Of a stretch of 64,000 nucleotides of DNA, positions 21,699 to 44,049 are shown piece by piece. How positions within the stretch are numbered: position 1 is the first letter of the stretch; every line of letters starts with the position of its first letter. The stretch comes from a virus. Lineage: Duplodnaviria; Caudoviricetes. The stretch lies in the IMG/VR virus record IMGVR_UViG_3300026159_000398; one strand, written 5' to 3'. Position numbers and translations under genes: made by a program. A model generated the notes under the pieces. That model ran no database searches. It was not told the DNA's origin and was given only the letters and a program-made list of their open reading frames with translations.

Positions 21699-22209
21699 AT
21701 CTTTTTGTTTAAGTGTAATTGTATTTCTTCGTCAATCAACTTCTCAAATGCATCATCTTCGAGTGCATGCATTTTATCAGGGTTCATGGCGATTTGGTAA
21801 AGGATATTGTAAATCATTTGACCAAAACGAAGATCGGGGTATGTCTTCCATAAACCACGAAGCTTTCCGATAATTCTGTCGATTCTGTCAATGTCTCTCA
21901 TTTGTAACCTTTTTTAATACACTCTTCAATTTCTTTTTCGGACCACATTTTACGTTTGGCCCATGCACCAGCCTTTTTGATTTTGATGTTCAAAACAGGT
22001 TGATGATTGTCTTGAACTAATTTGAAGAACCACCAATAAAGTTTTTCTTCGTCTTTTGTGGATGTCATACAAAAATCGTATCCTAAATACTGAGGACCAC
22101 CAGCTCTCATGTCAACAATATCATTACGCTCGCAGTCAATAGTGATCTCGAATACGTTTTTTGCCATGATGTTCACCACCATCTTTAGAGTTGTGACTCA
22201 CTCTTGATG

Positions 22210-22555
22210 TGGACCCGCGGAGAGTCGAACTCCGGTCTTACATAAATACAACTAATGTTGAATTACAAGCTTTTTTCATTTTTCTATCTTTGGTAGTGCA
22301 CCATAAAATGAATAAACGCGTAGCACCTAACATGTTTTTGTTTCAGTTGAAAGCCAACACCCAAATTGAATTCAATCAACCTATCCTCTAAATGAAGGTG
22401 ATCAGTAGTCGAGGAATCTATCTGACACCATGTTGCTTAGTTATTAAGCAGCGAGTTGTTCTTCAGCATTTAACTGTTTTGCCCCGTTTAACCACTCTGA
22501 GCAAGTGGGCTTGCACCATTAACTTTACCTCTGCAATCGAAACCAGTTCGGGCCC
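22210..22555 (-). ncRNA. ssrA: tmRNA, tag (A)AEEQLAA
   Basis: 5' GGGCCCGAACUGGUUUCGA; 3' T-arm and CGGGUCC-A with G3:U wobble; internal GCU GAA GAA CAA CUC GCU GCU UAA UAA. Confidence 0.93.
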
Positions 22556-26216: not shown

Positions 26217-26453
26217 TTATTTCCTTACCATTACTTTACAATTTCTCATTATCGATGTAGAAAAACAATATGTTTTTGAATAATCTGTATTTTGGCGACA
26301 AATTGTTGATTCTTTGATTGCAACTTTGTATTCTTGTTCTGAACATTTATATTCTTCAAGAGCATAGTTGTAATTTGTTCCAACTTCATGTCCCAGACAA
26401 CCAACAAAAAATAGTAAACAAATAAACAATAGTGCTTTTTTCATTACTTCCAC
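26217..26453 (-). CDS. Putative lipoprotein
   Basis: MKKALLFICLLFFVGC. Confidence 0.55.
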   Translation of the reverse strand: MEVMKKALLFICLLFFVGCLGHEVGTNYNYALEEYKCSEQEYKVAIKESTICRQNTDYSKTYCFSTSIMRNCKVMVRK

Positions 26454-27577
26454 CTTTTCATTTTTGACGATATTGGCGAATGGCTTATAAATACATCAAC
26501 AATCTTGAATTTCCTTTTGAGAGTGAAAAAAATCCATGATACAAATTGATCTTCATCATCAAAATAGATTATTTCACCATCGTGTATAAGCCGCCATTCA
26601 TTCTCAATGCAATCAAGGCATGTAATTACCAGATTGAAAGGAACATTTCGTAAATAAGCATCTTTATAAATGCCATATTCAAGCCAATCATAATCAAGAA
26701 GCCCTACTCTGAATTTACCTTGCGGCGAATCATCAAAGTTTTGTTCAAACGGATTTGGCTTGATATTATGAGGAATATGTTCAGTTGGGTGCGGACCATT
26801 TCCATGACGAGTATGGTACGCTCGAGTGACAATCCAAGGAAAAGGCGTATATTGAACAAAATTCCTGCTTCCTGTGTTGGAAGGAGTCACATGCGGAAAA
26901 AATCCATTATGTTGGTCAAGAAGCAATCCTTGGGAGCCTTCATAAATAAGACTTTTGAATTCTTTGCCTTTTCTATCTTTTGTAAGATTGTCAGGTGCCA
27001 TTTTTACAAAAGGATTATTCGTAATAATGAAGCTTGCGTTCAGAAAATTCTTCACATATTCAGTATCATATTCGCATTTATAGTGTTTAGCAATAAGCTT
27101 CAATTTTTCATGAAGAACAGATTGATAAAATAAATCTTCAAATTTTAGATGATAAAAGTTTTCTTCACGACGGTATGTCGCGTTGATTCCAAGCCCGCAA
27201 CTTCCATGAGCATTTTGGCTTTCTGCTATTCTGCCAGCTCCAATATCGTATGGAGTTGTCACAGGACAGCGGCGATCAATGTAGAGTTCGGGTTCAATGC
27301 CCATTTTCATGAGCATATCAAGTTCGACTAAAAGAGCTACGGGGTCAATGGTACACTCAGGGAACCAATAAGTCGGAATTCCTCTGAGTGTACCACTGCC
27401 GAAACTTGAGAACACATGGCTAGTTTTTTCATCTACAACAACTTGATGACCTGCCTGTTGGCCTCCGCAGTAACGTACCACAAGCGGGCGTTTTAATTTC
27501 TGACAAAGGTAGTCAACAACCATACCTTTCCCTTCATCACCAAAACCTGCGCCAATTACTGCGTTGCTAACATTCAT
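26444..27577 (-). CDS. purA: Adenylosuccinate synthetase-like protein
   Basis: GFGDEGKG, GGQQAGH, HGSCG.G, EGSQGLLLD and TRHGNGP. Confidence 0.88.
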   Translation of the reverse strand: MNVSNAVIGAGFGDEGKGMVVDYLCQKLKRPLVVRYCGGQQAGHQVVVDEKTSHVFSSFGSGTLRGIPTYWFPECTIDPVALLVELDMLMKMGIEPELYIDRRCPVTTPYDIGAGRIAESQNAHGSCGLGINATYRREENFYHLKFEDLFYQSVLHEKLKLIAKHYKCEYDTEYVKNFLNASFIITNNPFVKMAPDNLTKDRKGKEFKSLIYEGSQGLLLDQHNGFFPHVTPSNTGSRNFVQYTPFPWIVTRAYHTRHGNGPHPTEHIPHNIKPNPFEQNFDDSPQGKFRVGLLDYDWLEYGIYKDAYLRNVPFNLVITCLDCIENEWRLIHDGEIIYFDDEDQFVSWIFFTLKRKFKIVDVFISHSPISSKMKRWK

Positions 27578-30475: not shown

Positions 30476-31138
30476 TTAAAAAATTATCTTTCTTCCTTTA
30501 ATCCAACCTTGATCTAACCATTTTTGAAGATCAGATTTAGGAATTGATTTACTTATTTTTGTCTCTAAACTATGAATCCAACAATTACCATAATTTGAAT
30601 TATTTTTACCTTGCTGATATTTAGAATTCGCTTTTCCTATTTTCTTTTTGGATTCATCTGTATGTTTTTTGCCAGTCCATGACCAGCCGCCTTTCTTTTC
30701 AAATGTTTTACGAGTTGAATTAACTCTTTTTTGTAATTGTTCTTTAGAATTCCATTTATCTAGATATGCTTTTCTAAATTCTAAATCATTTTTTACTTTA
30801 TCACCGGTAATTCTACCACCAATTAAACCAGACTTCGAAGGTGATTTTTCTAAATCTGTAGCTTGCCCACCAACCTGACAGTTATATGTATCATCACGAG
30901 CAACAAATTCGTCATCTACAATTTGTTGTTCTCTACGATTCATATCTTCATAATCTTCACAAAAAAATAAAATTTCTTTTTTAAAATTTTCTTTTCCAAA
31001 TAATTTAATATCACGATGCAAAAGTATTCCACTACCCAAATAATTGTCATTCGGATTTGTAGTTTGATGTTGACCGATATAAATTTTATTATTGACTAAA
31101 CATGTTGTTTTATAAATAGTGAAATATTGTTTTTTCAT
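30476..31138 (-). CDS. GIY-YIG (Seg-like) homing endonuclease with NUMOD3
   Basis: IYKTT..YIGQH..YLGSG..YN. Confidence 0.88.
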   Translation of the reverse strand: MKKQYFTIYKTTCLVNNKIYIGQHQTTNPNDNYLGSGILLHRDIKLFGKENFKKEILFFCEDYEDMNRREQQIVDDEFVARDDTYNCQVGGQATDLEKSPSKSGLIGGRITGDKVKNDLEFRKAYLDKWNSKEQLQKRVNSTRKTFEKKGGWSWTGKKHTDESKKKIGKANSKYQQGKNNSNYGNCWIHSLETKISKSIPKSDLQKWLDQGWIKGRKIIF

Positions 31139-31144
31139 AAAAAA

Positions 31145-31169
31145 CCTCTTAATAAATTATATTAAGAGG
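31145..31169 (-). promoter_or_regulatory. SD-sequestering hairpin with embedded AATATAATT promoter
   Basis: CCUCUUAAU-AUAAUUU-AUUAAGAGG. Confidence 0.75.
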
Positions 31170-31209
31170 CAGTTCAATTTTTGTTCAATATTTTTTATTG
31201 AACTCTGAT

Positions 31210-31283
31210 TATCCTCCGGCAGAGTCGAACTGCCATCACTGAGTTCGTAGCCCAGTACTCTAAATCCATTGAGCTAGGAGGAC
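31210..31283 (-). tRNA. tRNA-Arg(ACG)
   Basis: Cloverleaf, loop CU-ACG-AA. Confidence 0.9.
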
Positions 31284-31287
31284 GAAT

Positions 31288-31365
31288 TACCCTCAGAAGG
31301 ACTTGAACCTCCATGCATCCAATTAACCTTTCAACGCGTTCGTAGCGCGAGGGTATACGGAGAGA
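31288..31365 (-). ncRNA. Rearranged tRNA-like RNA with ACG anticodon-type loop
   Basis: T-arm GGAGG-UUCAAGU-CCUUC, CGCG-CUACGAA-CGCG arm, no canonical D-arm. Confidence 0.6.
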
Positions 31366-31369
31366 AATG

Positions 31370-31441
31370 TCCTGAGAGTCTGAGTTGAACAGACACCTGC
31401 TGGGCTTCAACTAACCGTGCGACCAAGTACACTATCTCAGG
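31370..31441 (-). tRNA. tRNA-Phe(GAA)
   Basis: Cloverleaf, loop UU-GAA-GC, one mismatch in anticodon stem. Confidence 0.8.
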
Positions 31442-32015
31442 TAAAATATAATTCTGGCAATTCTTGTTCAGTAACGACAAAAAAATTATCGCCATATTGT
31501 TTATTTGCGGCTTTTAATTTAGCCTGAATTTTTGATTCCTTTAATCTAAAATGAGGTTTTATTTCCACTATACTTTTTTCTCTTGGTAAATAAAAATCAG
31601 GATAGTAGTAATGTTCATTGCCTTCAAAAGTATATTTGACTCTAAATTTTTTATTATCTGCTCTTTCATAAGGAATTTTATATTCATCAAGAAGTTGCAT
31701 GAATTTGAGTTCAAATGAAGATTCATAAGGAATGCCATTATAAATTCCATTTATACTTTTTAATCTTTTATTGCTGGGTTCCCATCCGTCACGAATATGT
31801 TGTTTATGTTCTTCGGAAAGTTTCTTTCCTTTTCGAGAATTACTTATTTTAAGTTTTGTTTCTTGCGAAATTTTATATCCTTTAGAACGATTCTTTCCGA
31901 TGCATGACACACTTATTTTTAATTTTGTTTCTTGGGAAACTTTGTGTCCTTTGAGTGAATCGCTAATTTTTTGATTTCGTGCTGATGAATATTTGAAACC
32001 CTTTTTTCTTGACAT
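31437..32015 (-). CDS. NUMOD3 + PD-(D/E)xK homing endonuclease
   Basis: SQETKLKIS repeats; YYPDFYLPRE..VEIK. Confidence 0.85.
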   Translation of the reverse strand: MSRKKGFKYSSARNQKISDSLKGHKVSQETKLKISVSCIGKNRSKGYKISQETKLKISNSRKGKKLSEEHKQHIRDGWEPSNKRLKSINGIYNGIPYESSFELKFMQLLDEYKIPYERADNKKFRVKYTFEGNEHYYYPDFYLPREKSIVEIKPHFRLKESKIQAKLKAANKQYGDNFFVVTEQELPELYFT

Positions 32016-32016
32016 G

Positions 32017-32100
32017 ATAATTACCTCTACTATAATTATAAACGGAAGTTAGGCTGATTGAGTAGAGCAATCAGCCAAGGGAGCTACCCTCTTTCCTTCC
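32017..32100 (-). promoter_or_regulatory. Structured 5' leader (three-way junction + kissing loop on SD), copy 1
   Basis: GGAAG/CUUCC, AGGG-UAGCU-CCCU, 9-bp stem with loop CUCUACU complementary to SD loop AGUAGAG. Confidence 0.8.
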
Positions 32101-32123
32101 TGTATTTATAATTATATTACATG

Positions 32124-32405
32124 TCAAAGATTTTTTTGATATTGTTTTTTAAATTTTGTTAATTTCTTCCAGCTTTTTGTTGTATAACAACTGGGATATT
32201 TTTCAAGATTCCCCCACCTATTTAGATATGAAGGGCCTCTTCTTTTACGTAACAAAATTCCATCATCAATATCTTTTTGCCATCTGCATCTCTCTTGTTG
32301 AACTCTTTGACGACGATATCCAAGCCATCTGTGTTCAGCAAGCATCCACCATTTAGGGCAAGGATGTTCTTCATATCCCCACCACTTTGACCAATGATAG
32401 TACAT
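32124..32405 (-). CDS. Basic Trp-rich small protein
   Basis: AGGAGG SD; C-terminal KSWKK..KKQY. Confidence 0.65.
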   Translation of the reverse strand: MYYHWSKWWGYEEHPCPKWWMLAEHRWLGYRRQRVQQERCRWQKDIDDGILLRKRRGPSYLNRWGNLEKYPSCYTTKSWKKLTKFKKQYQKNL

Positions 32406-32683
32406 TATAACCTCCTAAGTTTTCACTTAAAAGTCATAAAGTACCTCCATAAAAAGTTTTTTCATAATAACATCCTTTTTGAATTTTAACATGAACAATG
32501 TTAATGTTCAGCTTTTATGTTAATGACACCATTGTTTGATGTTCACATGTATCTTCAGCATCTTTTTTGGTATTATTCAATTCACAAATTCCTGTAGTAC
32601 TTTGAAATTCTTGTAAGTCTTTTTCTGTATGTTTATAAAGACTTTCCCACTTTTGGCAATTTGCACAAATTTTTAATTGTCTG

Positions 32684-33355
32684 TCAATTGGTTTTCTCAT
32701 TGTTATTTTCCTCAAATTCTTTTTTTATTCTTATAATTTGTGTTCTACTAATTTTTAGATTTTCTGAAGCTCGTGATATCCAGCCGCGTTTATCATAATC
32801 ATATAATTTTATTTTTTTATATAATTCAGCACGTATTTGTTTGGCTTTTTCTGATGAATATGTTAAATTTAATTTTTTGAGACAACGAGTTATATGAACA
32901 ACACTGCAATTAAATTCTTTAGCTAATTCTTCTGTATTGATATTACTTTCAAATAATCTTTTTAATTTTTCAAAATCAATTTCTTTTTTATTCCATGCCT
33001 TTTGTGAATTTTTTGCGCCTTTATTCCATGGTGAACATCCCTTTCTGTTACCTGGAATTGTATGAATAAATCCGCCTTGACCACCTTCTAAAATATTGTA
33101 ACCATAAAGTCGATTATTACTTTGAAAAAACTTTATGCATTCTTTTTCAGCTTTATTAAGTAATTTTTCTGAATTACACCAACCTAGAATTATTTTTTCT
33201 AAATGAATAGAACCACGTTTTTGAATAACTTGACGAATTATTTTTCCTGAGCCAAAATAATTCTTTATACCTTTTAAACTTTGATTAGTTGTTTTACCAA
33301 CATAAACTTTTTTTGTAAAATGATCTTTAATGAGATAAATGTAGCCGTATGACAT
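32684..33355 (-). CDS. GIY-YIG homing endonuclease
   Basis: MSYGYIY..VYVGK..YFGSG..GYN; start reassigned to 33355 from SD position. Confidence 0.88.
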   Translation of the reverse strand: MSYGYIYLIKDHFTKKVYVGKTTNQSLKGIKNYFGSGKIIRQVIQKRGSIHLEKIILGWCNSEKLLNKAEKECIKFFQSNNRLYGYNILEGGQGGFIHTIPGNRKGCSPWNKGAKNSQKAWNKKEIDFEKLKRLFESNINTEELAKEFNCSVVHITRCLKKLNLTYSSEKAKQIRAELYKKIKLYDYDKRGWISRASENLKISRTQIIRIKKEFEENNNEKTN

Positions 33356-33356
33356 G

Positions 33357-33442
33357 ATAATTAGCCTCAACATAATTATAAATATAGAAGTGAGACCAGT
33401 AAGTTGAGGTTACTGGTCAAGGGAGCTACCCTCTGTCCTTCT
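33357..33442 (-). promoter_or_regulatory. Structured 5' leader (three-way junction + kissing loop on SD), copy 2
   Basis: AGAAG/CUUCU, AGGG-UAGCU-CCCU, 9-bp stem with loop CCUCAAC complementary to SD loop GUUGAGG. Confidence 0.8.
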
Positions 33443-33488
33443 GATATTATAATTATATTACATCATCGACTAAATTCTTCTCTCATTT

Positions 33489-33965
33489 TTACTGGACGAG
33501 TGAATCCGCGGCGTGCGTCGCTGCCCAGCTATCATGCTTGATTTTGTATTCGAAGCCCATTGCTTCCACCCATCCAATAGCTTCTTTAGCAATAGAGTTG
33601 GATTTGTGTTCAGGGTTTGGGTTGATGTCCAAGTGAACTTGGAATCCACGAGTTCCAACAAGATCAAGTAGCTTTGTAGAAGCATCAACCACAAGTTCAA
33701 CTTCCTTCATCAAGCGTTCACGCATACTTCTGATGCGAGCGGTTTTTGAAACTTCCACAAACATGTGGCCGCCTTTTGAACTTTCAATGTGAACGATGAT
33801 AGCAAGACCAAAACTTGTATAAGCTTTGTGGTTCTGGCTGTCAACTCCAACATAGATTGTGCTGGTTTGAGGAGTATTTTTGATGTACTCTTTCAAATCA
33901 TCCCAATCAATAGCTTGTGTGATTCTTCTTTCCCCTTCTTTTAGATCGCTCTTGAACTTTTTCAT
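33489..33965 (-). CDS. RNase H-like protein (YkuK/DUF458 type)
   Basis: IYVGVDSQ, LMKEV, VHLDIN and AATHAAD. Confidence 0.85.
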   Translation of the reverse strand: MKKFKSDLKEGERRITQAIDWDDLKEYIKNTPQTSTIYVGVDSQNHKAYTSFGLAIIVHIESSKGGHMFVEVSKTARIRSMRERLMKEVELVVDASTKLLDLVGTRGFQVHLDINPNPEHKSNSIAKEAIGWVEAMGFEYKIKHDSWAATHAADSLVQ

Positions 33966-34480
33966 ACGAACGTCATCTCCATCTTACCCAGAACTTTTAT
34001 TTGAGATGGTTCTATCATGGCTGAAAAACAGCCACTCTGATAAAAATCAGCAGTGTCGCCGTTCTTATCATAGGAACCGTCTTTTTTCAGACGTTTTACG
34101 AAAACATGATGGCCATCAGGATAAACGTCATTGTGTGCTTTTCCACCGCCATCCATTTTCGTCTTTATAACTACAAACTTTCCACCTTTGAGACAAAACT
34201 TTTCATAGGAAAGTTGTTGCTTGCTTAATTGTGTTTTTACAAAGTTGATTATTACTTTATTATCGACTTTCGCTCCAACTCTTTTAAAGGCGTTGCGAAC
34301 TTCATTGGCAATGTCATGATAATCTGTATCAATTATCGGGTCATATTTTTCATCAATAGTTACTTCATGATGGCATTTATCATTTGAGAATGCCATGTTC
34401 TGATAAACATATCGTTCAGGAACATCGGTATAAACGCAATGACCTTTTCTCAGTTCAACAACATCACCAACTTTCAGCAT
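33962..34480 (-). CDS. Hypothetical protein
   Basis: Operonic ORF with SD. Confidence 0.65.
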   Translation of the reverse strand: MLKVGDVVELRKGHCVYTDVPERYVYQNMAFSNDKCHHEVTIDEKYDPIIDTDYHDIANEVRNAFKRVGAKVDNKVIINFVKTQLSKQQLSYEKFCLKGGKFVVIKTKMDGGGKAHNDVYPDGHHVFVKRLKKDGSYDKNGDTADFYQSGCFSAMIEPSQIKVLGKMEMTFV

Positions 34481-35027
34481 GACTCACTCCTTTTCATCTA
34501 AATGTCTTTCAATGTATGCCTTATCCTGTTGAACTTTGTATGTGTCAAGTTCTCTAGACATCATTTTCAGAAGTTCTTTTTCAAGATCGCAGCTCATGGT
34601 TTTTAATTCTTCAGCTGCTTCAACTGTCCATTTGCATTTAAATGGTTTATTGTGATAAATTTTACGAATCTTCCACCAATTACGCCATCCAACTTTCTTG
34701 AACGCTTGGCGAACTGGAACATTCATTACAATTCTGGTGGTTGGTATTTTTCCAAGCTCACCAAAATCTATTACGTCTCCTTTCCAATGAATGGTAATTC
34801 TCATTACCACCCTCTTTCGTTGTTTGTTGTAATTTCTATGACAGCGAAAACTGCCATCAATAATCCTAAGAGACCTAAAAAGAAAATAATCGAGAAAAAC
34901 AACCAATCTTTAGTGATAATTTTATTTCCAGCTTCTTTAATCATGTGCCACAAAAATGCGACACCACATCCACCAAAAAATAACCATCCTAAAACAAAGG
35001 CTAAAACAATTTCCATACTCTCTCCAT

Positions 35028-35108
35028 TAGGGATACCCAGACTCGAACTGGGACGCCATTAGGCACAGGGTTTGAGCCTGCTGAGTAGACCAATTCCTCT
35101 ATATCCCC
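35028..35108 (-). tRNA. tRNA-Leu(CAA)
   Basis: Cloverleaf with variable arm. Confidence 0.9.
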
Positions 35109-35362
35109 GTATTTTTATTTATTTATTGCAAGGCAGATTTTCTTGAATTCTGCATCGCATGCTTTCATTGATGTTTCTTCGTCTTCTTCTACACCAAAAT
35201 CCCAGGTGTATTCATTGCCATTACGCATAGTGAATTCAATGGAACACAAATCATCTGTTTTATGAAATGATTCAATGTCATAAGTACGTATAACATCATT
35301 TTGAGGATGACCATCTTTACTCTTGCATATCAGAAAATCCATAACTCTCTCCTTTTGTTTTG

Positions 35363-35436
35363 TGCATCCCGTGAGATTTGAACTCACCACTTTCCCGTTA
35401 TGAGCGGGGTACTCTAACCAACTGAGTTAGGGATGC
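35363..35436 (-). tRNA. tRNA-Met/Ile2(CAU)
   Basis: Loop CU-CAU-AA, G1:C72 paired. Confidence 0.88.
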
Positions 35437-35852
35437 TTATTTCACTTCTTTGGCGTTTCTCAATCTCATTATCAATTCTTCAATTTTGACTCGTTTGAAT
35501 GGAAAAAATAATGAGTGCTTCGCTCTATCAAGAGCAGTTTTCAGAAGTTCAATTTCTTCTTCAGTGAGAATGTCGATCATGTAACGTCTTTGACGGTAAT
35601 TTCTCATACGCTCTCCTTTGGATATTTTATTGAAATAGATTTTATGATTATTTCTTTTGGTTCTAAAATCATTAAGTCACCAAAAACCACACCAAAATTT
35701 TCTAGACTTGCATTTCCATTTCTTCGCATAACATCAGTAATGAAGGCTTCAGCTTGTTCTACCATTTCAAAACCTTTCATGCCGTGCTCGAATTCGGTAT
35801 CGTAAAATACCCAGACTTTTCGTTTCATTTCCATAACTCACTCCTTTAAATG

Positions 35853-35924
35853 TCCGCTCGACAGGAATCGAACCTATTTCTCCGGTTTATCAGACCGGTG
35901 CTTCGCCATTTAAGCTACGAGCGG
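35853..35924 (-). tRNA. tRNA-Ile(GAU)
   Basis: Loop CU-GAU-AA. Confidence 0.9.
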
Positions 35925-35930
35925 GTGATG

Positions 35931-36004
35931 CAGAAGTGACTGGATTCGAACCAGTATCTTTCGATTTTGGAGATCGATATTTTGGCCAGTTAAACTACAC
36001 TTCT
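35931..36004 (-). tRNA. tRNA-Trp(CCA)
   Basis: Loop CU-CCA-AA, G73. Confidence 0.92.
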
Positions 36005-36048
36005 AAATGTCTTCTTATTGAATTATATTATAATTATTTATACTTTAT

Positions 36049-36717
36049 TTAGATTTTTAATAATTCTGGTAATTCTTTTTCAGTTATAAGTAAAAATTTA
36101 TTTCCAAATTGTTGTTTGGCTGCTTTTAATTTTGCTTTTGTTTTTAAATCTTTTAAATAATATACTGATTTAATTTCAATAATAGAATCTTCTCTTGGTA
36201 AATAAAAATCAGGATAGTAGTAATGTTCTTGATTTTCAAAAATGTATTTTATTTTAAATTGATTCGCTCTTTCATAAGGAATTTTGTATTCGTCTAATAA
36301 CTTCATAAAATTAAGTTCATAAGATGATTGATAAAATATTCCATTATGAAAACCGTATTTTCCTTTTGCACGTTTATTGTTAGGTGTCCATGCTTCACTA
36401 ATATGTTTTTTATGTTCTTCAGAAAATGGTTTTTTGGGTTTACCTTTTCTTAAGATACTTTTTTGTTGATTGGCTTCTAAAGAGTGTTTGCAGCCTTTAG
36501 CATTTTTATTACCAATTTGTGCAAGAGACATTTTTTGTTTTGTGGTTTCAGAAAATGGTTTTCTTTTTTTCCCTATATTAGAAAGACTTATTTTTAATTT
36601 AGTTTCTTCTGAATGTGGAACTCCAGATTTGCCTTTTTTGGGTGATGGTTTACCTTTTTTAGCCTCACTCATTTTTCTTTTGGATTTTTCTGACATTTTA
36701 TATCCTTTATAGCTCAT
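36049..36717 (-). CDS. NUMOD3 + PD-(D/E)xK homing endonuclease
   Basis: HSEETKLKIS repeats; YYPDFYLPRE..IEIK. Confidence 0.85.
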   Translation of the reverse strand: MSYKGYKMSEKSKRKMSEAKKGKPSPKKGKSGVPHSEETKLKISLSNIGKKRKPFSETTKQKMSLAQIGNKNAKGCKHSLEANQQKSILRKGKPKKPFSEEHKKHISEAWTPNNKRAKGKYGFHNGIFYQSSYELNFMKLLDEYKIPYERANQFKIKYIFENQEHYYYPDFYLPREDSIIEIKSVYYLKDLKTKAKLKAAKQQFGNKFLLITEKELPELLKI

Positions 36718-36912
36718 AATTGTTTCCTTAGAGTATTGTAATTATTGCACCATAATTTTTAAAATGATCAATAATATTCTCAAAATGTTTGCCAAGAGTC
36801 CATTGAGCAATATCAGGTGCTCCAGTGATTATTGTATTTTCTTCCTTTAAAACGAAATATTTTCCATCTGGCATCTTCACTGAAAACAACCGCATACGCG
36901 CCTCCACGAATG

Positions 36913-36985
36913 GGAGAATATCGAGACTCGAACTCGAACTGCTAGGGTCACGACCTAGGGTGCTAACCATTACACCATACTCTCC
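36913..36985 (-). tRNA. tRNA-His(GUG), C33
   Basis: G-1:C73, loop UC-GUG-AC. Confidence 0.88.
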
Positions 36986-37042
36986 ATATGCAAGTCACGT
37001 AAAACGTGACAAGAACCATTTGTACACATGGTACATTGGATG

Positions 37043-37114
37043 TGGGCCCATAGAGAATCGAACTCTACTCAATCGGTTAAAAGCCGATTGCTTCGCCAAC
37101 AAAGCTTTGAGCCC
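37043..37114 (-). tRNA. tRNA-Lys(UUU)
   Basis: Loop CU-UUU-AA. Confidence 0.9.
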
Positions 37115-37190
37115 AAAATGATTTACTCTTTTTTTAGAGAGGCAGTTAATCTCATTCCTCTACACGATTAAAGCTAATGCGTACTATATG

Positions 37191-37277
37191 CGGATGACCA
37201 GAGATTCGAACTCTGAGAGCCTTTCGACCCGCTTGTTTTCAAGACAAGTCCCCGCACCCACTGGGGTCAAGCCATCC
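37191..37277 (-). tRNA. tRNA-Ser(UGA)
   Basis: Long variable arm, G73. Confidence 0.9.
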
Positions 37278-37422
37278 ATAAATACTGAGTGACCATAATA
37301 TAAAGGTTGTCTCGAGATCTCTTTATACCACACATTTTTACCCCAATGTGCCGGATATATCATCTTGATGGTCAAAATTTTTCTTGCGTCTAGTTCGGAA
37401 GAAAAATTTTCTTTACTCATTT

Positions 37423-37509
37423 CGGAGCCGAGAGGATTCGAACCTCTGTAGGAGTTACCCATACAACAGTTTAGCAAACTGTCCACTTACCTGGCTAGTG
37501 TACGACTCC
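37423..37509 (-). tRNA. tRNA-Ser(GCU)
   Basis: Long variable arm, G73. Confidence 0.9.
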
Positions 37510-37524
37510 ATTCACAACTTAAAA

Positions 37525-37656
37525 GAGAAAATATAAATGAGGGACCGATATAGATTATGTGTTTATATCTGGCAGGTTCACCCACAGGCATCTTATCTAC
37601 GAGCTATGTCTCTCACCAGCTGCCAACCTCTAACATAGATCACTTTACATTTTCTC
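37525..37656 (-). ncRNA. Rod-shaped structured RNA, possibly 6S-like
   Basis: GAGAAAAUGUAAA/UUUAUAUUUUCUC closing stem, central bubble, UGGCAG/CUGCCA stem. Confidence 0.45.
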
Positions 37657-37659
37657 ATG

Positions 37660-37733
37660 AGACGCGGATGGGACTCGAACCCACACAAAACAGTTTTGCA
37701 GACTGACCCATTATTCCATTCTGGTACCGCGTC
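37660..37733 (-). tRNA. tRNA-Cys(GCA)
   Basis: Loop CU-GCA-AA, U73. Confidence 0.9.
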
Positions 37734-39459
37734 ATGAATAATCTACTTCACTGAATTTGAATCCTTTGTTTTGAAATAGATCAATACAAATATCAACTAA
37801 TTCAGCATTATATTTTGTGCCTCTGCCATCGCGTAATTCTTGAATAGCAATATCAATTCCGAGAGCCGGACGATATGGTCTATGAGAAGCGATAGCTTCA
37901 ACAATATCTGCAATACAAATAATTTGTGCACCTAAAAGAATTTGATTTTCTTTTAATCCTTGTGGATATCCCGAGCCGTCTATTTTTTCATGGTGCTGAT
38001 AAATCATTTCAGCAATTGGCCAAGGAAAATCAATCTTCTTTAAAATATCATAACCATCTTTTGCGTGCATTTGAATCAATTGAAATTCAATGCTATTAAG
38101 AGATGATGGTTTTGCAAGCAATTCAGATGGAACTCCAAGTTTTCCAATATCATGAATACTGGCTGCGAGTTCTATTCCTTGAATATCTTCAAAATCAAGA
38201 CCTTTGGCTTTGGCTATCTCTTTCGCAAGTTCTGCAACTCGCAATTGATGGCCTGCAGTATAAGAGTCTCGAGTATCAACAACCAATCCAAGAGCTTGAA
38301 TAATACCACTCAACGTTCTTTGAAGTTTATATTCAGCTTCTTTTTTCGAAGTAACATCAATCGAAAAATTCAATGTTGCTGGCTTGCCTTTCCATTCAAC
38401 GCGTGAAGAAGTTATTTCAACCCATTTAATATTACCACGAGTATCTTGTACTCGAAAAGCGTAATTAGTTGGGACATCTTCTCCGTTTAATCTGCGTTGA
38501 TATCGATCAAAAACAAAACCTAAATCTTCTTTATAAATAACTTCAGATACTTTTTTATTGGCAATAATTTCTTCTGGCGGACATTCCATCAATTTTCCGA
38601 ATGCCGGATTTGCCAATGTAAAACCATCTTCTTGTGCAACAAAAATTGCTATTGGTGCGTCTTTAAAAAGTCGAACATAATCTTCTTCGGTCTTTTTCTT
38701 TTCTGTAATGTCAATACCAAACGACAACGTTCCAATAACTTTTTCAATAACCTTTACAAGAGTATTGCGCCAAAGAATGTATTTTTCTTGTCCGTCTTTG
38801 GTTAATATGGGATTTTCGAATTCGTATGGAATTCCCTTTTCTGTCAGTCTGTCAAACTGTTCCCATATTTCTGGATATTTTTCTCTCGGAACAAAAATTT
38901 CAAGAACTTTTTTATTCTTTACTTCATCAAACTTATACCCAGTAATTTCTTCAGCTGCTTTATTAAAAATAACGGCTCTTGCGTTATGATCAAGCATGAG
39001 AATCATTGTATTAGCGTGTTGAATTAAATCATCTGCAAATTCTTTTGCTAATCGCAGTTCTCTTTCTGTCTGCTTGGCGACTGTAACATCATGAATGATT
39101 CCTAACAAAAATTCTTCTTCAGCGATTTCAATTCGCGTCAAGAATATTTCTGTCTCAATCATCTTTCCTTCAAAATCAATACAAGTCCAATCATATTGTT
39201 GATTTTCAATTTGAGCAACTTGAATGATGCACTTACATTTATCTTCCGATAATTGTCCGTCTTTTTGATATTTTGGAGAAAGTTGTACAGGTGTTAAACC
39301 AATCAAATCCTCTCTTTGACATTTAAACATCTTTTCTGCTTGAGGATTGCAATCGACTATCATGTCACCCGCAAGAATTAAAATAGCGTTTGGTGTTTTA
39401 TCAAACAGCAAACGATATCGTTGCTCTGATTCGAGCAACTTCTTTTTCAGCTGTTCCAT
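37732..39459 (-). CDS. PAS-PAS-PAS / HD-GYP cyclic-dinucleotide phosphodiesterase
   Basis: Three PAS/PAC repeats (..HDVT, ..IDIT, ..IDVT); YTAGH, HDIGK, HHEKIDGSGYP and RPYRPA. Confidence 0.93.
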   Translation of the reverse strand: MEQLKKKLLESEQRYRLLFDKTPNAILILAGDMIVDCNPQAEKMFKCQREDLIGLTPVQLSPKYQKDGQLSEDKCKCIIQVAQIENQQYDWTCIDFEGKMIETEIFLTRIEIAEEEFLLGIIHDVTVAKQTERELRLAKEFADDLIQHANTMILMLDHNARAVIFNKAAEEITGYKFDEVKNKKVLEIFVPREKYPEIWEQFDRLTEKGIPYEFENPILTKDGQEKYILWRNTLVKVIEKVIGTLSFGIDITEKKKTEEDYVRLFKDAPIAIFVAQEDGFTLANPAFGKLMECPPEEIIANKKVSEVIYKEDLGFVFDRYQRRLNGEDVPTNYAFRVQDTRGNIKWVEITSSRVEWKGKPATLNFSIDVTSKKEAEYKLQRTLSGIIQALGLVVDTRDSYTAGHQLRVAELAKEIAKAKGLDFEDIQGIELAASIHDIGKLGVPSELLAKPSSLNSIEFQLIQMHAKDGYDILKKIDFPWPIAEMIYQHHEKIDGSGYPQGLKENQILLGAQIICIADIVEAIASHRPYRPALGIDIAIQELRDGRGTKYNAELVDICIDLFQNKGFKFSEVDYS

Positions 39460-39528
39460 TTATTTTCCCTTAATAAAAATTGGTGTCAATTATATATTAA
39501 GTCGAAATTTATAAATGGAACAGAAAAT

Positions 39529-39601
39529 TAGGGCTACGGAGGTTTGAACTCCGATCGTCAGGTTGAAAACCTGATGTCCTCACCAATTAAACGATAGCCC
39601 C
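39529..39601 (-). tRNA. tRNA-Glu(UUC)
   Basis: Loop UU-UUC-AA. Confidence 0.9.
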
Positions 39602-39603
39602 AT

Positions 39604-39707
39604 TGGCGGGGTCAGGAGTGTTTGAGCCTCCATCTCCTCTCACGGACGAGAGGTGTTTTAGTATGGCACGCTTGACATGCCAGGCCGGCCAATTAAACTA
39701 CAACCCC
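39604..39707 (-). ncRNA. tRNA-like RNA with hairpin inserted in D-loop, encoded CCA
   Basis: GGGGUUG/UGACCCC-GCCA, D-loop insert UGGCAUG-UCAAG-CGUGCCA, non-standard anticodon and T loops. Confidence 0.6.
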
Positions 39708-39712
39708 ATAAT

Positions 39713-39784
39713 TGGGGTGAATGGGAGGATTCCCTCCATTTCAGGACCCGCTGTCCTGTGTCCTAGGGTTAGACGACATTCACC
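39713..39784 (-). ncRNA. tRNA-His-like RNA with reduced T-loop, encoded CCA
   Basis: G-1:C73, CCA, loop CA-GCG-GG, T-loop GAAU, no D-loop GG. Confidence 0.6.
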
Positions 39785-39787
39785 ATG

Positions 39788-39860
39788 TCTACGACCTGGG
39801 AGTCGAACCCAGATTTTTCTCCACCCCAAATGGAGTACCATTCCGCTAGGCGAGTCGTAG
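39788..39860 (-). tRNA. tRNA-Pro(UGG)
   Basis: C1:G72, loop UU-UGG-GG. Confidence 0.88.
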
Positions 39861-39864
39861 TTAT

Positions 39865-39935
39865 TTGTCCCTAAAGGAATTGAACCTTTACTGTGGGGGC
39901 CAAAACCCCATGTCTTACCGTTAGACGAAGGGACA
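39865..39935 (-). tRNA. tRNA-Gln(UUG)
   Basis: U1:A72, loop UU-UUG-GC. Confidence 0.9.
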
Positions 39936-40026
39936 ATGTTTGATGAAGAGCGGTCCGGTTTGCTACTAGCTACCATACGGCAACCTTCAAATGCATCCTT
40001 TGGGGCCTTGATTATTCTTCATCGAT

Positions 40027-40106
40027 TAGCCCACCCCAGATTCGAACTGGGACGCCGAAGCACAGGGTCTAGACCTGCTAGATAGACCAGATTCTCTTAG
40101 TGGGCC
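40027..40106 (-). tRNA. tRNA-Leu(UAG), C33
   Basis: Variable arm, loop UC-UAG-AC. Confidence 0.85.
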
Positions 40107-40114
40107 GTAAAAAT

Positions 40115-40195
40115 TCGGGATACTCGGATTCGAACCGAGACGCAATTAAGCACTGGGTTTAAGCCAGCTGGATAGACCTATTCTCCTATACCCCG
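40115..40195 (-). tRNA. tRNA-Leu(UAA)
   Basis: Variable arm, loop CU-UAA-AC. Confidence 0.9.
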
Positions 40196-40199
40196 TAAT

Positions 40200-40275
40200 T
40201 CGTGATGAAGAGATTTGAACTCTTACTGAATACGCTCTCAACGTATTTCCTCTACCAAAATTGGGATACATCACG
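40200..40275 (-). tRNA. tRNA-Leu(GAG), short variable loop
   Basis: Loop UU-GAG-AG, ~5-nt variable region. Confidence 0.8.
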
Positions 40276-40358
40276 TTAATGCGACGCACTTTTGTTACTG
40301 TGATCAGCAGTTTTTTGTTTGTGCGCCTTATCGCTTTTACCGTGCGACAATTGCAATG

Positions 40359-40430
40359 TGGGTTGTCAAGGATTTGAACCTTGCCCTGCGATTTTACAGA
40401 CCGGCGTGCCACCAGCAACACTTACAACCC
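40359..40430 (-). tRNA. tRNA-Tyr(GUA), short variable loop
   Basis: Loop CU-GUA-AA, ~4-nt variable region. Confidence 0.8.
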
Positions 40431-40435
40431 AAATG

Positions 40436-40506
40436 AGCATTCGACCAGAATTGAACTGGCATCTCAGCGTTGGCAACACCGAATTCTACCATTAAACTAC
40501 GAATGC
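40436..40506 (-). tRNA. tRNA-Gly(GCC)
   Basis: Loop UU-GCC-AA, U73. Confidence 0.9.
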
Positions 40507-40510
40507 AAAA

Positions 40511-40634
40511 CGTACTGGCGATAGGAATCGAACCTATACCGTCATCTTTTAAGGGTGATAATCAATCTCTGTCCGTACCAGTTTGGTCTAATGTGTAGAA
40601 ATTGAGTTTTACGCTTTACCAAAAGCGCCAGTAC
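40511..40634 (-). ncRNA. tRNA-mimicking Y RNA (YrlA-like, ends in acceptor stem)
   Basis: GUACUGG/CCAGUAC acceptor, D-like arm, AUAGG-UUCGAUU-CCUAU T-arm; anticodon arm replaced by UAGACCA-AAC-UGGUACGG..GAUUAUC Ro-type helix. Confidence 0.78.
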
Positions 40635-40638
40635 TATG

Positions 40639-40710
40639 AGCGGGAAAAGGGATTCGAACCCTCAACGATCAGTTTGGAAAACTGAGCTTCTACCATTGAA
40701 TTATTCCCGC
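40639..40710 (-). tRNA. tRNA-Gly(UCC)
   Basis: Loop UU-UCC-AA, U73. Confidence 0.92.
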
Positions 40711-40715
40711 ATAAT

Positions 40716-40744
40716 AAAAATGCCCCTCTTTGTGGGAGGGGCAT
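40716..40744 (-). terminator. Attenuator terminator ahead of the tRNA array
   Basis: AUGCCCCUC-CCACAAA-GAGGGGCAU-UUUU. Confidence 0.85.
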
Positions 40745-40779
40745 CATTCCGATTTTAAAATTTAACACCAATTAAAACA

Positions 40780-40872
40780 TCACGGATGACATGCCCCAAC
40801 CTGTCCTGGGAGAATCTGACCTTCCAGACTTGAGGGTTGATAAAAACGTTTATGTAAGGAACATATCATCAT
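40780..40872 (-). CDS. Putative 30-aa leader peptide MMICSLHKRFYQPSSLEGQILPGQVGACHP
   Basis: Between promoter (40888-40897) and terminator; AGGU SD; 3' end is the antiterminator strand. Confidence 0.7.
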   Translation of the reverse strand: MMICSLHKRFYQPSSLEGQILPGQVGACHP

Positions 40873-40926
40873 TTTGAATTACCTATAGAATTATATTATT
40901 GCACTTTGAAATTTATTTATAAAAAT

Positions 40927-41202
40927 TTACGCTACTTCTAAAAATTGTGCGTCCTCTCTGTCTTTTTGTTTTAACTCGGCATTTGAAAGAGGACGCTTAC
41001 CAAATGCTCTTGTTTTACATGATTCACATCCACAAGATAATGGGTGGTGTTTTTTGTAATGACCTTTAAAATCTGCAAGAAACTTTTCGCCGTTAAGCGT
41101 GTTAAATTTTTCTGGCATCTTGATTTCGTCTTTCATTACATGATAACGTTTTTCGGTGATGCGTTTATTCTGGTGTCTTTTGTACGCTATTCCACGTCCC
41201 AT
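40927..41202 (-). CDS. Basic small protein with CxCxxC
   Basis: GAGG SD; SCGCESCK. Confidence 0.65.
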   Translation of the reverse strand: MGRGIAYKRHQNKRITEKRYHVMKDEIKMPEKFNTLNGEKFLADFKGHYKKHHPLSCGCESCKTRAFGKRPLSNAELKQKDREDAQFLEVA

Positions 41203-41405
41203 AAGACCTCACAAATAATTTTTGTAAAAGCTAATATAGCCTAAAGTCACTCCCCAATAATATCCAGTATTTTGTTGCTCAACTTCATCAACACATCTAA
41301 TGAATCTGAATTGAGGTAAATAGAGAATATTTGGTTTTTCAAAAATTTGTTCTATTTCAATGGTATATCGTTTTTTAAAAATATCTTTTGAATACATACT
41401 CATTC

Positions 41406-41645
41406 CTATTTTTTATTCAAGACTCTATACCACGAAAGTCTTCCATTTGAACCACAACTATGATAAATTACAGTGTCTTTGCAAACAATATAATAATGAT
41501 TGTATTCACCTTTAATGTCCAAGCCCCATATTTCGCATTCAGGAAACATAGTCTTTAGTATTTTGACATTTTTATCCCATTGTGGTTTGTCATTACCGCA
41601 AGCCAAAAACATCAGAAACACAAGACATAAAAATATTTTTTTCAT
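41406..41645 (-). CDS. Putative lipoprotein
   Basis: MKKIFLCLVFLMFLAC. Confidence 0.6.
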   Translation of the reverse strand: MKKIFLCLVFLMFLACGNDKPQWDKNVKILKTMFPECEIWGLDIKGEYNHYYIVCKDTVIYHSCGSNGRLSWYRVLNKK

Positions 41646-41814
41646 TTTTCACTCCTTCCATCATTTGCTCTCAATAATTCAAGCTCCTCAAGAAGAGGTT
41701 TAATGTCTTGAAATTTTACCAGAGTATTGTCGTCATCTGGTTTTGCCTTAAATAAAGCTACATCAGGATTCCAATAATATTGGGGCACTTGTATCATCAC
41801 TCACTCCTTTAATG

Positions 41815-41888
41815 TCGGGGCGAAAGGATTTGAACCTTCGACCACATGTTCCCAAAACACGTGCGCTACCAGACTGCGCTACGCCCCG
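41815..41888 (-). tRNA. tRNA-Pro(UGG)
   Basis: CGGGGCG acceptor, loop UU-UGG-GA. Confidence 0.92.
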
Positions 41889-42813
41889 AAAATGACCAAT
41901 GCAATTAAAGCCAATGCTGCTAAGATATACAAAAATAAAATGAATTTTATTTCCATTTCTTTTCGTGCAATTCGACACTCCAACCACTCTGCTATCTGAT
42001 GAAACGCCGATTCTTCTGGCTCTTCATGAATTGGTATTCTTGCTACTTTTTTAGTAGGCACTTTAGTTAGAGCTACCTTTAAAAAGTATTCCGCAAAGCC
42101 AACTGAGAAGAACCGCATGCCACCATCCGATTTCGCCGATGATGAATCCTTTAACTACTATGCCAGGAAGAACAAAAGGCACTACATACGGCCATATCAG
42201 CCATACAAGCGTTCCAGCAAAAACCGCTACAATGAAAAGAAGCACTAATGCTACAACGGCCGCTCCTACACCAGCAATAAGCTTGGCAATAAAATCACTC
42301 ATTCGCATACTCCTTAAATTTATTTACAACTCTTAAAGCATTCAAGTTGTTGTTGCTGTATTTCAATAGTCGAATTCTTTACTGAATTATTGCAAAATTG
42401 GACAATATTAGCCAGTAATAGCACACTCACAACAACCAATAAAATTCGTTTCATTTTATATTTCCTTTTCAAAAAGTTGCTTTAGAATTGGACTTTGCCA
42501 ACCAAAAAGTTTCACATGACGATTGATACAATAAAGAGTTACTTTTTTCCAACCTTCAAGTTCATTGTCTTCAAGATCATGCCACATAAGAAGTGGTCGT
42601 AAGACTTGAACGAGCGTAAATGTCCGTTTGCCGTAATATGAGTCTTCAGTTTTCTGTGTGATTTTGGTTACTTTTCCAAAATTCATCCACAATGAACTTC
42701 CAGTACGGCCAGGATATGTGATGACATCTCCGACTTTTACGTCATTGCCACAACAATCTTTATAACTTTCGAGTTGAACAATAATGTCCTCTTTCATACT
42801 CACTCCTTTAATG

Positions 42814-42885
42814 TAGAGTCGGAGAGACTTGAACTCTCATCCTACTGCTTGTAGGGCAGCCGCTCCGCCATTGAGCTACGACTCT
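42814..42885 (-). tRNA. tRNA-Val(UAC), C33
   Basis: Loop CC-UAC-AA. Confidence 0.88.
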
Positions 42886-42919
42886 GTGTGGCCGTTAGTT
42901 GACGGCCAGTTTACAATAA

Positions 42920-43225
42920 TTATTTTACGAGTTTTTTTCTCTGCTTGTCAGTCAGAACTTTATCCATTGCTTTAACTTGTTTTTCAAGATCAGCAATTTC
43001 GACTTTCAAACCTTTCATTGCAGCTTGTTTTTCTTCAAGCTGAACTTTGACGCTTTCTGTTTTCTTCATTTGAATTTTGCATCCAGTGACTCCACCGAAT
43101 GTCATGCCAGCGAAAAATATCAGAGCAGCGAGAGCGCCGTAAATGACAACCTTACCAATCTTCGTTGCTTTGAAAGCTACGAATTTGGCTTTTGCGGCCG
43201 CAAAAAATGCTTTAACTTTTTCCAT
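42920..43225 (-). CDS. Membrane-anchored coiled-coil protein
   Basis: One TM helix then coiled coil; AGGAG SD. Confidence 0.65.
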   Translation of the reverse strand: MEKVKAFFAAAKAKFVAFKATKIGKVVIYGALAALIFFAGMTFGGVTGCKIQMKKTESVKVQLEEKQAAMKGLKVEIADLEKQVKAMDKVLTDKQRKKLVK

Positions 43226-43251
43226 TGTTCACTCCTTGTTTTTTTAAACTG

Positions 43252-43326
43252 CGGGGCATACGGGACTCGAACCCGTGATGATTCCTCCGTGACAGGGAGG
43301 TGGCATTGCCGCTAGCCCAATACCCC
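43252..43326 (-). tRNA. tRNA-Asp(GUC)
   Basis: Loop CU-GUC-AC, G73. Confidence 0.9.
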
Positions 43327-43989: not shown

Positions 43990-44030
43990 ATTCGAACCTC
44001 TATATTTAATTATATTACAAGAGTTCGAAT
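43990..44030 (-). promoter_or_regulatory. SD-sequestering hairpin with embedded promoter
   Basis: AUUCGAACUCU..AAUAUAAUU..AGAGGUUCGAAU-AUG. Confidence 0.75.
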
Positions 44031-44049
44031 AAAATTATTAAAATAAATG

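Follow-up and report, generated by a model that had tools for sequence, protein, structure and literature searches.

An uncatalogued kissing-loop RNA leader in front of predicted nuclease genes of uncultured phages

In the expression platform of cobalamin riboswitches (L5-L13), the ribosome-binding site (RBS) is part of a downstream hairpin whose loop forms a kissing contact with a loop of the upstream domain. Fully complementary loop-loop complexes also form in trans between two transcripts, as in ColE1 RNA I/RNA II and R1 CopA/CopT, and retroviral dimerisation loops include GCGCGC/GUGCAC in the HIV-1 DIS and the GACG tetraloops of MoMuLV. Among phage homing-endonuclease genes, RBS-sequestering structures repress I-TevI and Aeh1 mobE and are predicted or implicated for I-TevII, I-TevIII, and T4 segB (PMC3014915). 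Here we analyse a stretch of 64,000 nucleotides (nt) of phage DNA (Duplodnaviria; Caudoviricetes; IMG/VR record IMGVR_UViG_3300026159_000398), hereafter the window, in which two predicted nuclease genes are each preceded by a leader that folds into a three-way junction of helices P1, P2, and P3. The loop of P3 (L3) is complementary to the loop (L4) of a downstream hairpin, P4, that holds the Shine-Dalgarno sequence (SD). The theme of SD-sequestering leaders on phage homing-endonuclease genes is already known; the leader itself is a real, widespread, uncatalogued structured RNA of uncultured phages.

Both window copies have the same layout: P1, a 5-nt joiner, P2, one U, the 9-bp P3, a 3-nt joiner, and the return strand of P1, followed by a linker of 4-6 nt, the A-U hairpin P4 (AUAAUUA(U)/(G)UAAUUAU), and then C-AUG-UCA. 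Copy 1 spans 32016-32100 and copy 2 spans 33356-33442, both on the minus strand, with the following elements:

32044-32100, minus strand: copy 1 three-way junction (73.0-bit covariance-model match, minimum free energy fold, family covariation)
32096-32100 with 32044-32048, minus strand: copy 1 P1, GGAAG/CUUCC
Minus strand: copy 1 joiners J1/2, GAAAG, and J3/1, UAA
32078-32090, minus strand: copy 1 P2, AGGG-UAGCU-CCCU
32068-32076 with 32052-32060, minus strand: copy 1 P3, 9 bp
32061-32067, minus strand: copy 1 L3, CUCUACU
32032-32039 with 32017-32024, minus strand: copy 1 P4, AUAAUUAU/GUAAUUAU, 8 bp, A-U rich
32025-32031, minus strand: copy 1 L4, AGUAGAG, the exact complement of L3, containing the GAG of the SD GAGG
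32013-32015, minus strand: copy 1 AUG
33386-33442, minus strand: copy 2 three-way junction (72.3-bit covariance-model match, family covariation)
33438-33442 with 33386-33390, minus strand: copy 2 P1, AGAAG/CUUCU
Minus strand: copy 2 joiners J1/2, GACAG, and J3/1, UCA
33420-33432, minus strand: copy 2 P2, AGGG-UAGCU-CCCU, identical to copy 1
33410-33418 with 33394-33402, minus strand: copy 2 P3
33403-33409, minus strand: copy 2 L3, CCUCAAC
33373-33379 with 33357-33363, minus strand: copy 2 P4, AUAAUUA/UAAUUAU, 7 bp
33365-33371, minus strand: copy 2 L4, GUUGAGG, the exact complement of L3, containing the whole SD GAGG
33353-33355, minus strand: copy 2 AUG

A 17-nt core occurs twice in the window, where 0.01 occurrences are expected by chance, and a covariance-model search of the whole window with filters off returned these two copies only (73.0 and 72.3 bits, E about 1e-16). 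For copy 1, an RNAfold prediction by itself gives both the junction and P4. By sequence, model search, and RNAfold, every structural element that an initial annotation of the window had read in the two copies is present on the minus strand where it had been placed.

Scanning viral contigs with a 16-base core unmasked four unrelated contigs with the same architecture, in which the P3 loop complements bases just before GGAGG. Further scans covered metagenome contigs, relaxed the 3' end of the core, or left the P2 loop free. Searches with a covariance model trained on 28 members then brought in divergent copies without the exact core. The core scans of viral and metagenome contigs and the subsequent model searches gave 71 matches in total, corresponding to 69 distinct leaders. 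At least 26 separate viral contig records carry the leader, as do further metagenome fragments; multiple copies can occupy one contig, with as many as six on a 33-kb fragment and the same number on a complete genome of 253 kb, and whole-contig searches of 25 records added few variants in the later rounds. One cultured lineage was positive: five Enterocloster bolteae phage records match the core, and in the record that we inspected, CB457P1 (OP172753.1), the leader lies upstream of an annotated I-TevI-like endonuclease gene. GenBank phages gave no megablast match to 31000-35000 and only chance A-T-rich blastn matches to the window leader, and a 19-base pattern run against genome contigs gave two chance matches without family features, both in metagenome-assembled genomes, the ...CCCTTG of that pattern missing TTT variants.

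The leader corresponds to no named family in Rfam 15, in line with the initial annotation, which could not match it to one: neither copy matched at gathering score, the region 31950-33520 gave only chance matches of miRNA or snoRNA type at E values up to 10, and four multi-copy relatives gave none at E values up to 1. Unmatched families include Cobalamin, int-alpA (RF02996), tRNA, hammerhead, twister, pistol, hatchet, and HEARO. Full-text literature searches, with the core sequence itself among the queries, found no description of the motif.

The fold is under selection, as is evident from the covariation of P1, P3, P4, and the loop-loop helix. P1, P2, and P3 were assessed in an alignment fitted to the covariance model (A2), in which 95.0% of cells are paired. 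Its covariation score is 0.636, compared with 0.188 for shuffled partners (0 of 500 shuffles reached the observed score) and at most 0.145 for slid partners. Every one of the five P1 pairs and nine P3 pairs shows two-sided changes. P2 is nearly constant among canonical members, and divergent members substitute other stems (GGU/ACC, GAG/CUC, CAUC/GAUG, GGCC/GGCC, CAAGAU/AUCUUG), so P2 is a helix too. A second P3 design ("type B") has a 3-4 bp stem and then conserved GAAA and (G/U)AGUA flanking a pairing segment of 6-7 nt (e.g., L036:11014-11070, L031:4183-4239, L070:11-67, and L151:1501-1557); its sequence suggests a structured internal loop that replaces the 9-bp stem.

The kissing helix was assessed in a separate alignment of 26 leaders (A4), which was made with MAFFT and fitted to no structure; because MAFFT uses sequence only, A4 cannot lean towards any structure. 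L3 and L4 nevertheless fall at identical column positions in 25 of the 26 rows. The kissing helix is 96.7% paired in A4, with double changes in six of its seven pairs, as many as four Watson-Crick types at a single position, and G-U pairs entirely absent; double changes also occur in four of the five P4 pairs. In a permutation control, 45 of 69 leaders contain a perfect L3:L4 duplex of 7 bp or more and 63 of 69 contain one of 6 bp or more, whereas an L3 set against another leader's downstream region reaches these lengths in 4.1% and 14.6% of cases, respectively. What had first been noted for two copies, a P3 loop that is the perfect complement of its own SD loop and covaries with it, thus extends to 58 distinct L3 sequences, and the complementarity is retained in homologues. 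No decoy site for L3 was seen when the leader sequences were inspected, although no systematic search for one was made.

The segment complementary to L3, which is itself 6-7 nt long, is in nearly all members the loop of the short hairpin P4, 10-20 nt downstream of the junction. A P4 stem of at least 4 bp surrounds L4 in 50 of 67 leaders, compared with 8.3% at control positions, and an SD-like 4-mer crosses the L4/P4 boundary in 62 of 69. The SD occupies the 3' end of L4 and the 3' arm of P4 and is consequently buried twice, since the kissing helix and P4 each cover part of it; it is sequestered in a helix, as in T4-type inhibitory hairpins. The L3:L4 duplex is calculated at -7.6 kcal/mol in copy 1 and -8.9 kcal/mol in copy 2, to which P4 adds -2.1 and -1.5 kcal/mol, respectively, while the SD:anti-SD pairing amounts to -7.1 and -5.6 kcal/mol. 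The AUAAUUA hairpin with the SD in its loop, described in the initial annotation, is present in both window copies, but its stem sequence is not a family feature: P4 of the AUAAUUAU/GUAAUUAU type is confined to a window subfamily comprising the two window copies, L014, L016, and L021. Most members outside this subfamily pair an anti-SD-like (A)ACCU arm with the AGGU of the SD, and many other stems exist.

To characterise the genes that follow the leader, 53 downstream proteins were scanned against Pfam:

NUMOD3: 18 of 53 proteins
GIY-YIG: 8 of 53, plus SegE in 3 and LEM-3 in 1
HNH: 7 of 53, plus HNH_3 in 1
DUF7487: 4 of 53
CapR / treble clef: 4 of 53
TnpB (OrfB_IS605 with a Cas12f-like TNB domain): 3 of 53
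MTES_1575 restriction-type: 2 of 53
LAGLIDADG: 1 of 53
TnsA-like: 1 of 53

By these domain matches, the leader family serves at least five predicted nuclease folds (GIY-YIG, HNH, PD-(D/E)xK, LAGLIDADG, and TnpB). The earlier idea of a leader that is portable between unrelated nuclease families, drawn from two genes, therefore holds for a far larger set. Since one RNA family fronts at least five unrelated folds, we regard it as a portable control module that travels with nuclease cassettes or has been captured by them. Leaders precede TnpB genes in several phage contigs (L029:1409-1503, L050:10935-11029, L055:11730-11824, and also L050:8519-8608), which argues that the family controls RNA-guided nucleases as well as homing endonucleases. 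The two genes in the window, all of whose nuclease-region genes lie on the minus strand, are the following:

31437-32015, minus strand: nuclease gene 1, 192 aa, with NUMOD3 and borderline TnsA-like and endonuclease I-like Pfam matches
32684-33355, minus strand: nuclease gene 2, 223 aa from the AUG at 33355, with GIY-YIG/SegE-like and C-terminal helix-turn-helix matches

NUMOD3 together with the borderline TnsA-like and endonuclease I-like matches makes gene 1 a probable PD-(D/E)xK nuclease; its stop codon (31437-31439) falls inside a tRNA gene (31370-31441). The product of gene 2 begins with a typical N-terminus, GYIY...YVGKT, and gives weak matches to GIY-YIG and SegE; an in-frame AUG at 33373, within the 5' arm of P4, has no SD. 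Pfam hence agrees with the original assignment of the two genes to different nuclease families.

A promoter-like box directly precedes P1 in both window copies:

32107-32118, minus strand: promoter-like box AATATAATTATA, 6 nt upstream of P1 of copy 1, an exact match to AATATAATTMTA
33448-33459, minus strand: promoter-like box AATATAATTATA, 5 nt upstream of P1 of copy 2
5582, 12221, 16489, 23541, 25709, 32107, 33448, and 40886: example sites of AATATAATTMTA

With up to one mismatch, AATATAATTMTA has 30 matches in the window where 2.0 are expected, a 15-fold over-representation, and each of its eight exact copies is found upstream of a gene on the minus strand. Often preceded by G-N and lacking a -35 element, the motif is probably the phage's own promoter class. 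Across the family, 16 leaders have an exact TATAAATA, the T4 late-promoter consensus, no more than 40 nt before P1 (13 of them at a distance of 2-12 nt), and many other leaders have a one-mismatch TATAAATA or a TATAAT box upstream of P1. Because such a box directly precedes P1, the leader appears to be the 5' end of a dedicated transcript. The sequence upstream of the box differs among relatives, which points to promoter, leader, and gene as the unit. Two members from a 253-kb phage contig (L155:1501-1567 and L157:1501-1564) have a long P2 loop rich in ACCUC/ACUCC and no L3 partner, and their TATAAATA box sits between the junction and the SD; they may represent a different regulatory version of the motif. 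Two further copies, L027:116-158 and L064:4185-4239, are truncated or degenerate, retaining the 5' half or most of the junction with no kissing partner and no nuclease gene, and are likely scars of lost cassettes.

We consider it most likely (roughly 70%) that the leader is a portable translational brake on selfish nucleases, carried in a cassette of promoter, leader, and gene. The observations behind this reading are the fold and its kissing contact, where the SD lies, the promoter-like box directly before P1, and the nuclease genes downstream. The transcript would start at or just before P1 and fold into a small three-way junction, from which P3 would present L3; P4, further downstream, would present the complementary L4, and the two loops would kiss. 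With the SD hidden by the kissing helix and P4, nuclease translation would be held down, and the release or setting of the brake would act at the GACAG junction and P2. We infer both the repressive effect and the existence of a release signal.

Several points weigh against a brake. Repression is read from geometry alone, and a pseudoknot next to an SD can also activate translation, as in repZ/repA of the IncI-alpha and IncB plasmids. Repression as such could be achieved by a simple hairpin, which leaves the elaborate conserved junction unexplained. Were the brake as tight as the calculated energies imply, there would be hardly any expression from a gene that has its own promoter, unless a release mechanism exists. 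L155, L157, and L043 have no convincing kissing partner, and in the Enterocloster copy the pairing site is upstream of the most likely SD. Moreover, the invariance of GACAG and P2 is partly an ascertainment effect, because most members were recruited through the conserved core. As the brake explains neither the conserved junction nor eventual translation, the junction and P2 are regarded as the probable control point.

Conservation points to the same place. The leader core consists of three helices in about 57 nt, and its conserved parts are the junction strand GACAG and the G-C-rich P2, while P1, P3, L3, L4, and P4 vary with compensation; this difference makes the junction and P2 the probable site where, judging from sequence, the brake is set or released. 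The P2 loop UAGCU, which the initial annotation had called invariant, is identical in the two window copies but varies across the family. When patterns were scanned with the P2 loop left free, every match with family features (P1 pairing and a loop-complementary site before the SD, judged by reading the sequences) carried UAGCU, UCGCU, UAGCC, UCGCC, or CAGCU, and the degenerate copy L064 also carried a near-identical loop. Divergent members have replaced P2, by CAUC-GACG-GAUG, GAG-GUGCACA-CUC, or CAAGAU...AUCUUG.

Many P2 loops are self-complementary (UAGCUA, UGGCCA, UGAUCA, GUGCAC, GUCGAC), a property that tends to persist where more divergent members have altered the loop sequence. Palindromes of at least 6 nt occur in P2 of 12 of 24 variants, compared with 2.0 expected from loop shuffles, and they differ between copies of one genome. 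Several variants carry it off-centre with respect to the stem, which means that the palindrome does not merely extend the helix. A GACG tetraloop is found in two members, on different stems. Examples of the palindromes are:

L011:9640-9697: P2-loop palindrome
L004:3751-3806: P2-loop palindrome
L046:9096-9152: P2-loop palindrome
L154: P2-loop palindrome
L188:1501-1557: P2-loop palindrome

The self-complementary loops suggest that the leaders could form loop-loop RNA homodimers. Against this, the commonest loop, UAGCU, has only the 4-nt palindrome AGCU, and the variants UCGCU and UUGCU break it. The linker is A-rich, and A-minor docking of the linker on the G-C-rich P2 is a further possible contact, conjectured from base composition.

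The brake could be refined into a ligand- or protein-controlled switch, in which binding at the GACAG junction and P2 stabilises or breaks the kissing complex and so restricts nuclease production to one particular condition; we put this forward tentatively. Such binding would account for the strong conservation of the junction and P2 while the other helices drift with compensation, and for the near-identical P2 loops in the loop-free scan; the architecture resembles the kissing-loop expression platform of cobalamin riboswitches, and some release signal would be needed if the brake fully closes off a gene that has its own promoter. However, the gene context, nucleases rather than metabolic or transport genes, suggests no ligand, and divergent members that replace P2 altogether are hard to fit to one fixed pocket or protein site. 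Nor do the downstream proteins share a single domain, which makes autoregulation by the nucleases unlikely. We rejected autoregulation through a shared nuclease domain on the same grounds, NUMOD3 being present in only 18 of 53 proteins and TnpB, HNH_3, and CapR-type proteins having no domain in common with the rest.

It is rather doubtful, though conceivable from the sequences, that the leader is a true sensor, whose junction and P2 would respond to a ligand, or to the concentration of their own mRNA via kissing of self-complementary P2 loops between two copies of it, in the manner of retroviral dimerisation loops, and so open or lock L3-L4. Were this so, nucleases of five folds would be translated only at a particular stage or genome dosage, and mobile nucleases would have a previously unseen type of regulatory RNA devoted to them.

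Timing by two promoters, as in T4, is a possibility that we hold at low odds and for the window subfamily only. The upstream promoter would yield a full-length transcript with an untranslatable leader, and a second promoter in the 5' arm of P4, UUAUAAUUAU, would yield a short transcript that is translated because the junction and this arm are missing from it. T4 e, soc, and I-TevI are controlled in exactly this way (PMC3014915). The 5' arm of P4 contains TATAATTAT, identical at 10 of 10 positions to the core of the window promoter box and kept in all five subfamily members (the two window copies, L014, L016, and L021), and exact TATAAATA occurs in the linker of L029:6793, L152, L155, and L157 (outside the 69-leader set). 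Most members, on the other hand, have an A/C-rich linker without a promoter-like box, and their sole promoter is upstream of P1. The internal box also lacks the AA that precedes the core in all exact boxes and has two mismatches in the sense orientation versus one in antisense, and the stem requires the same sequence anyway, L016 keeping the pairing through a U-A to U-G change.

The better antisense fit of the internal box to the phage promoter consensus relates to another arrangement, in which a plus-strand promoter lies over the start codon and P4:

32009-32036, plus strand: sigma-70-type consensus TTGACA-16-TATAAT, 12/12, overlapping the start codon and P4 of copy 1
33349-33376, plus strand: weaker equivalent, 10/12, 16-nt spacer, overlapping the start codon and P4 of copy 2

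RNA from such a promoter would be complementary to the junction and could open the leader or trigger its decay; we consider this antisense control unlikely. The consensus is perfect in copy 1, the same arrangement is readable with equal spacing in L014, L016, and L021 (weaker than in copy 1), and AUG-UCA, common to both unrelated genes, creates the -35 element. Yet the region holds 10 promoter-like matches versus 11.1 in shuffles, the arrangement is limited to one subfamily, and the open reading frame (ORF) list has no plus-strand gene downstream. An A-U palindromic stem combined with Met-Ser starts in an AT-rich genome produces the consensus near-automatically, which may make it no more than a side effect of that stem and of the AUG-UCA context.

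An improbable alternative reverses the sign of the effect: as a translational activator or mRNA stabiliser, the leader would use its 5' junction to block 5'-end-dependent decay, and its kissing complex would present the remainder of the SD favourably, as in repZ/repA. The leader does appear to begin at the 5' end of the transcript, 2-4 nt of the SD are outside L4 in many members, and the A-rich single-stranded linker could serve as a ribosome standby site. But in most members those SD bases that L4 leaves out are paired within the P4 3' arm, and the window copies hold nearly the entire SD in L4.

A DNA-level element (nuclease target, recombination site, or protein operator) is strongly disfavoured: P2 is often a near-perfect DNA palindrome and the core is common to cassettes that move, but four helices and a tertiary helix covary by Watson-Crick and G-U logic, and the element is always on the coding strand, between promoter and start codon, with a fixed SD position.

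Four other identities were rejected. A group I intron or IStron fragment does not fit an intergenic space of about 108 nt and a gene that runs into a tRNA, a hammerhead-like core does not fit the joiner lengths in their order around the junction, and translational coupling to the upstream ORF does not fit gaps of 23 and 46 nt with a promoter box between. The leader is not a tRNA or tRNA-like element either, as the Rfam tRNA model finds the 22 tRNAs of the window and not these sites, and there is no T arm; the likeness goes no further than a 4-bp arm, a joiner of one nucleotide, and a 7-nt loop.

The window is a fragment of a large AT-rich uncultured phage that encodes a terminase, a DnaB-type helicase, a PurZ-like enzyme, and a ligase, and an Rfam scan places 22 tRNAs and one transfer-messenger RNA (22207-22555, minus strand, 100.8 bits) in it. 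The best DNA data set for the stretch is labelled as a biogas fermenter metagenome. The tRNA region (31210-45560) encloses both nuclease cassettes. The PurZ-like adenylosuccinate-synthetase homologue (26444-27577, minus strand; PHROG 1211, E 3e-57) hints that the phage may use 2-aminoadenine in its DNA. Between the two cassettes, just upstream of a 93-aa ORF (32124-32405), a hairpin at 32406-32439 on the minus strand, CUUUUAAGU with ACUUAGGAG, hides the AGGAGG of that ORF, so that this small neighbouring gene has an occluded SD as well; it is a weak FourU-thermometer-like Rfam match (E 0.74), far below the gathering score.

Homing endonucleases and TnpB-type nucleases are selfish and potentially toxic, and only a handful of gene-specific hairpins, in T4-like phages, have so far shown how phages restrain them. 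The novelty here is a structured RNA family whose tertiary contact is proven by covariation. For RNA biology, it provides an uncatalogued motif with a clean, all-Watson-Crick 7-bp kissing loop and a small conserved core; for phage biology, it is a marker of nuclease cassettes and their decayed remnants. The Enterocloster phage CB457P1 is a cultured system suited to direct tests.

The likeness to retroviral dimerisation loops lies in the many self-complementary P2 loops and the two members with a GACG tetraloop; unlike in retroviruses, dimerisation of the leader is purely conjectural, with only a 4-nt palindrome in UAGCU that UCGCU and UUGCU break. With the ColE1 and R1 antisense complexes the leader shares loops of 6-7 nt and Watson-Crick-only pairing over the whole loop, but its loops are on one mRNA and each gene copy has a private loop sequence. 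The cobalamin platform is similar in that the loop of an upstream fold kisses the loop of a downstream RBS hairpin. The leader differs from cobalamin riboswitches in having no Cobalamin model match (E up to 10), no B12 box, no four-way junction, and nuclease genes downstream; the resemblance with a different core, which the initial annotation had pointed out, is therefore one of mechanism only. A conserved GACAG/P2 core with a variable platform would be riboswitch-like more generally, but P2 is replaced in divergent members and the sampling is core-biased.

The T-even-type hairpins (PMC3014915) come closest. In both, the SD of a phage homing-endonuclease gene is buried by an RNA structure that precedes the gene and acts in cis, late promoters are associated with this structure, and it presumably serves to keep production of a selfish nuclease low or to delay it. 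The T-even-type hairpins are single and gene-specific, belong to no conserved sequence family, and are relieved by a late promoter inside the hairpin. A promoter-like box in the 5' arm, TATAATTAT, can be read in P4 of the window subfamily, whereas most members have no such box and their promoter is upstream of the whole structure. Instead of a simple local hairpin of one gene, the leader has a conserved three-way junction, common to 69 leaders, and a long-range kissing loop, and it stands in front of nucleases of at least five predicted folds.

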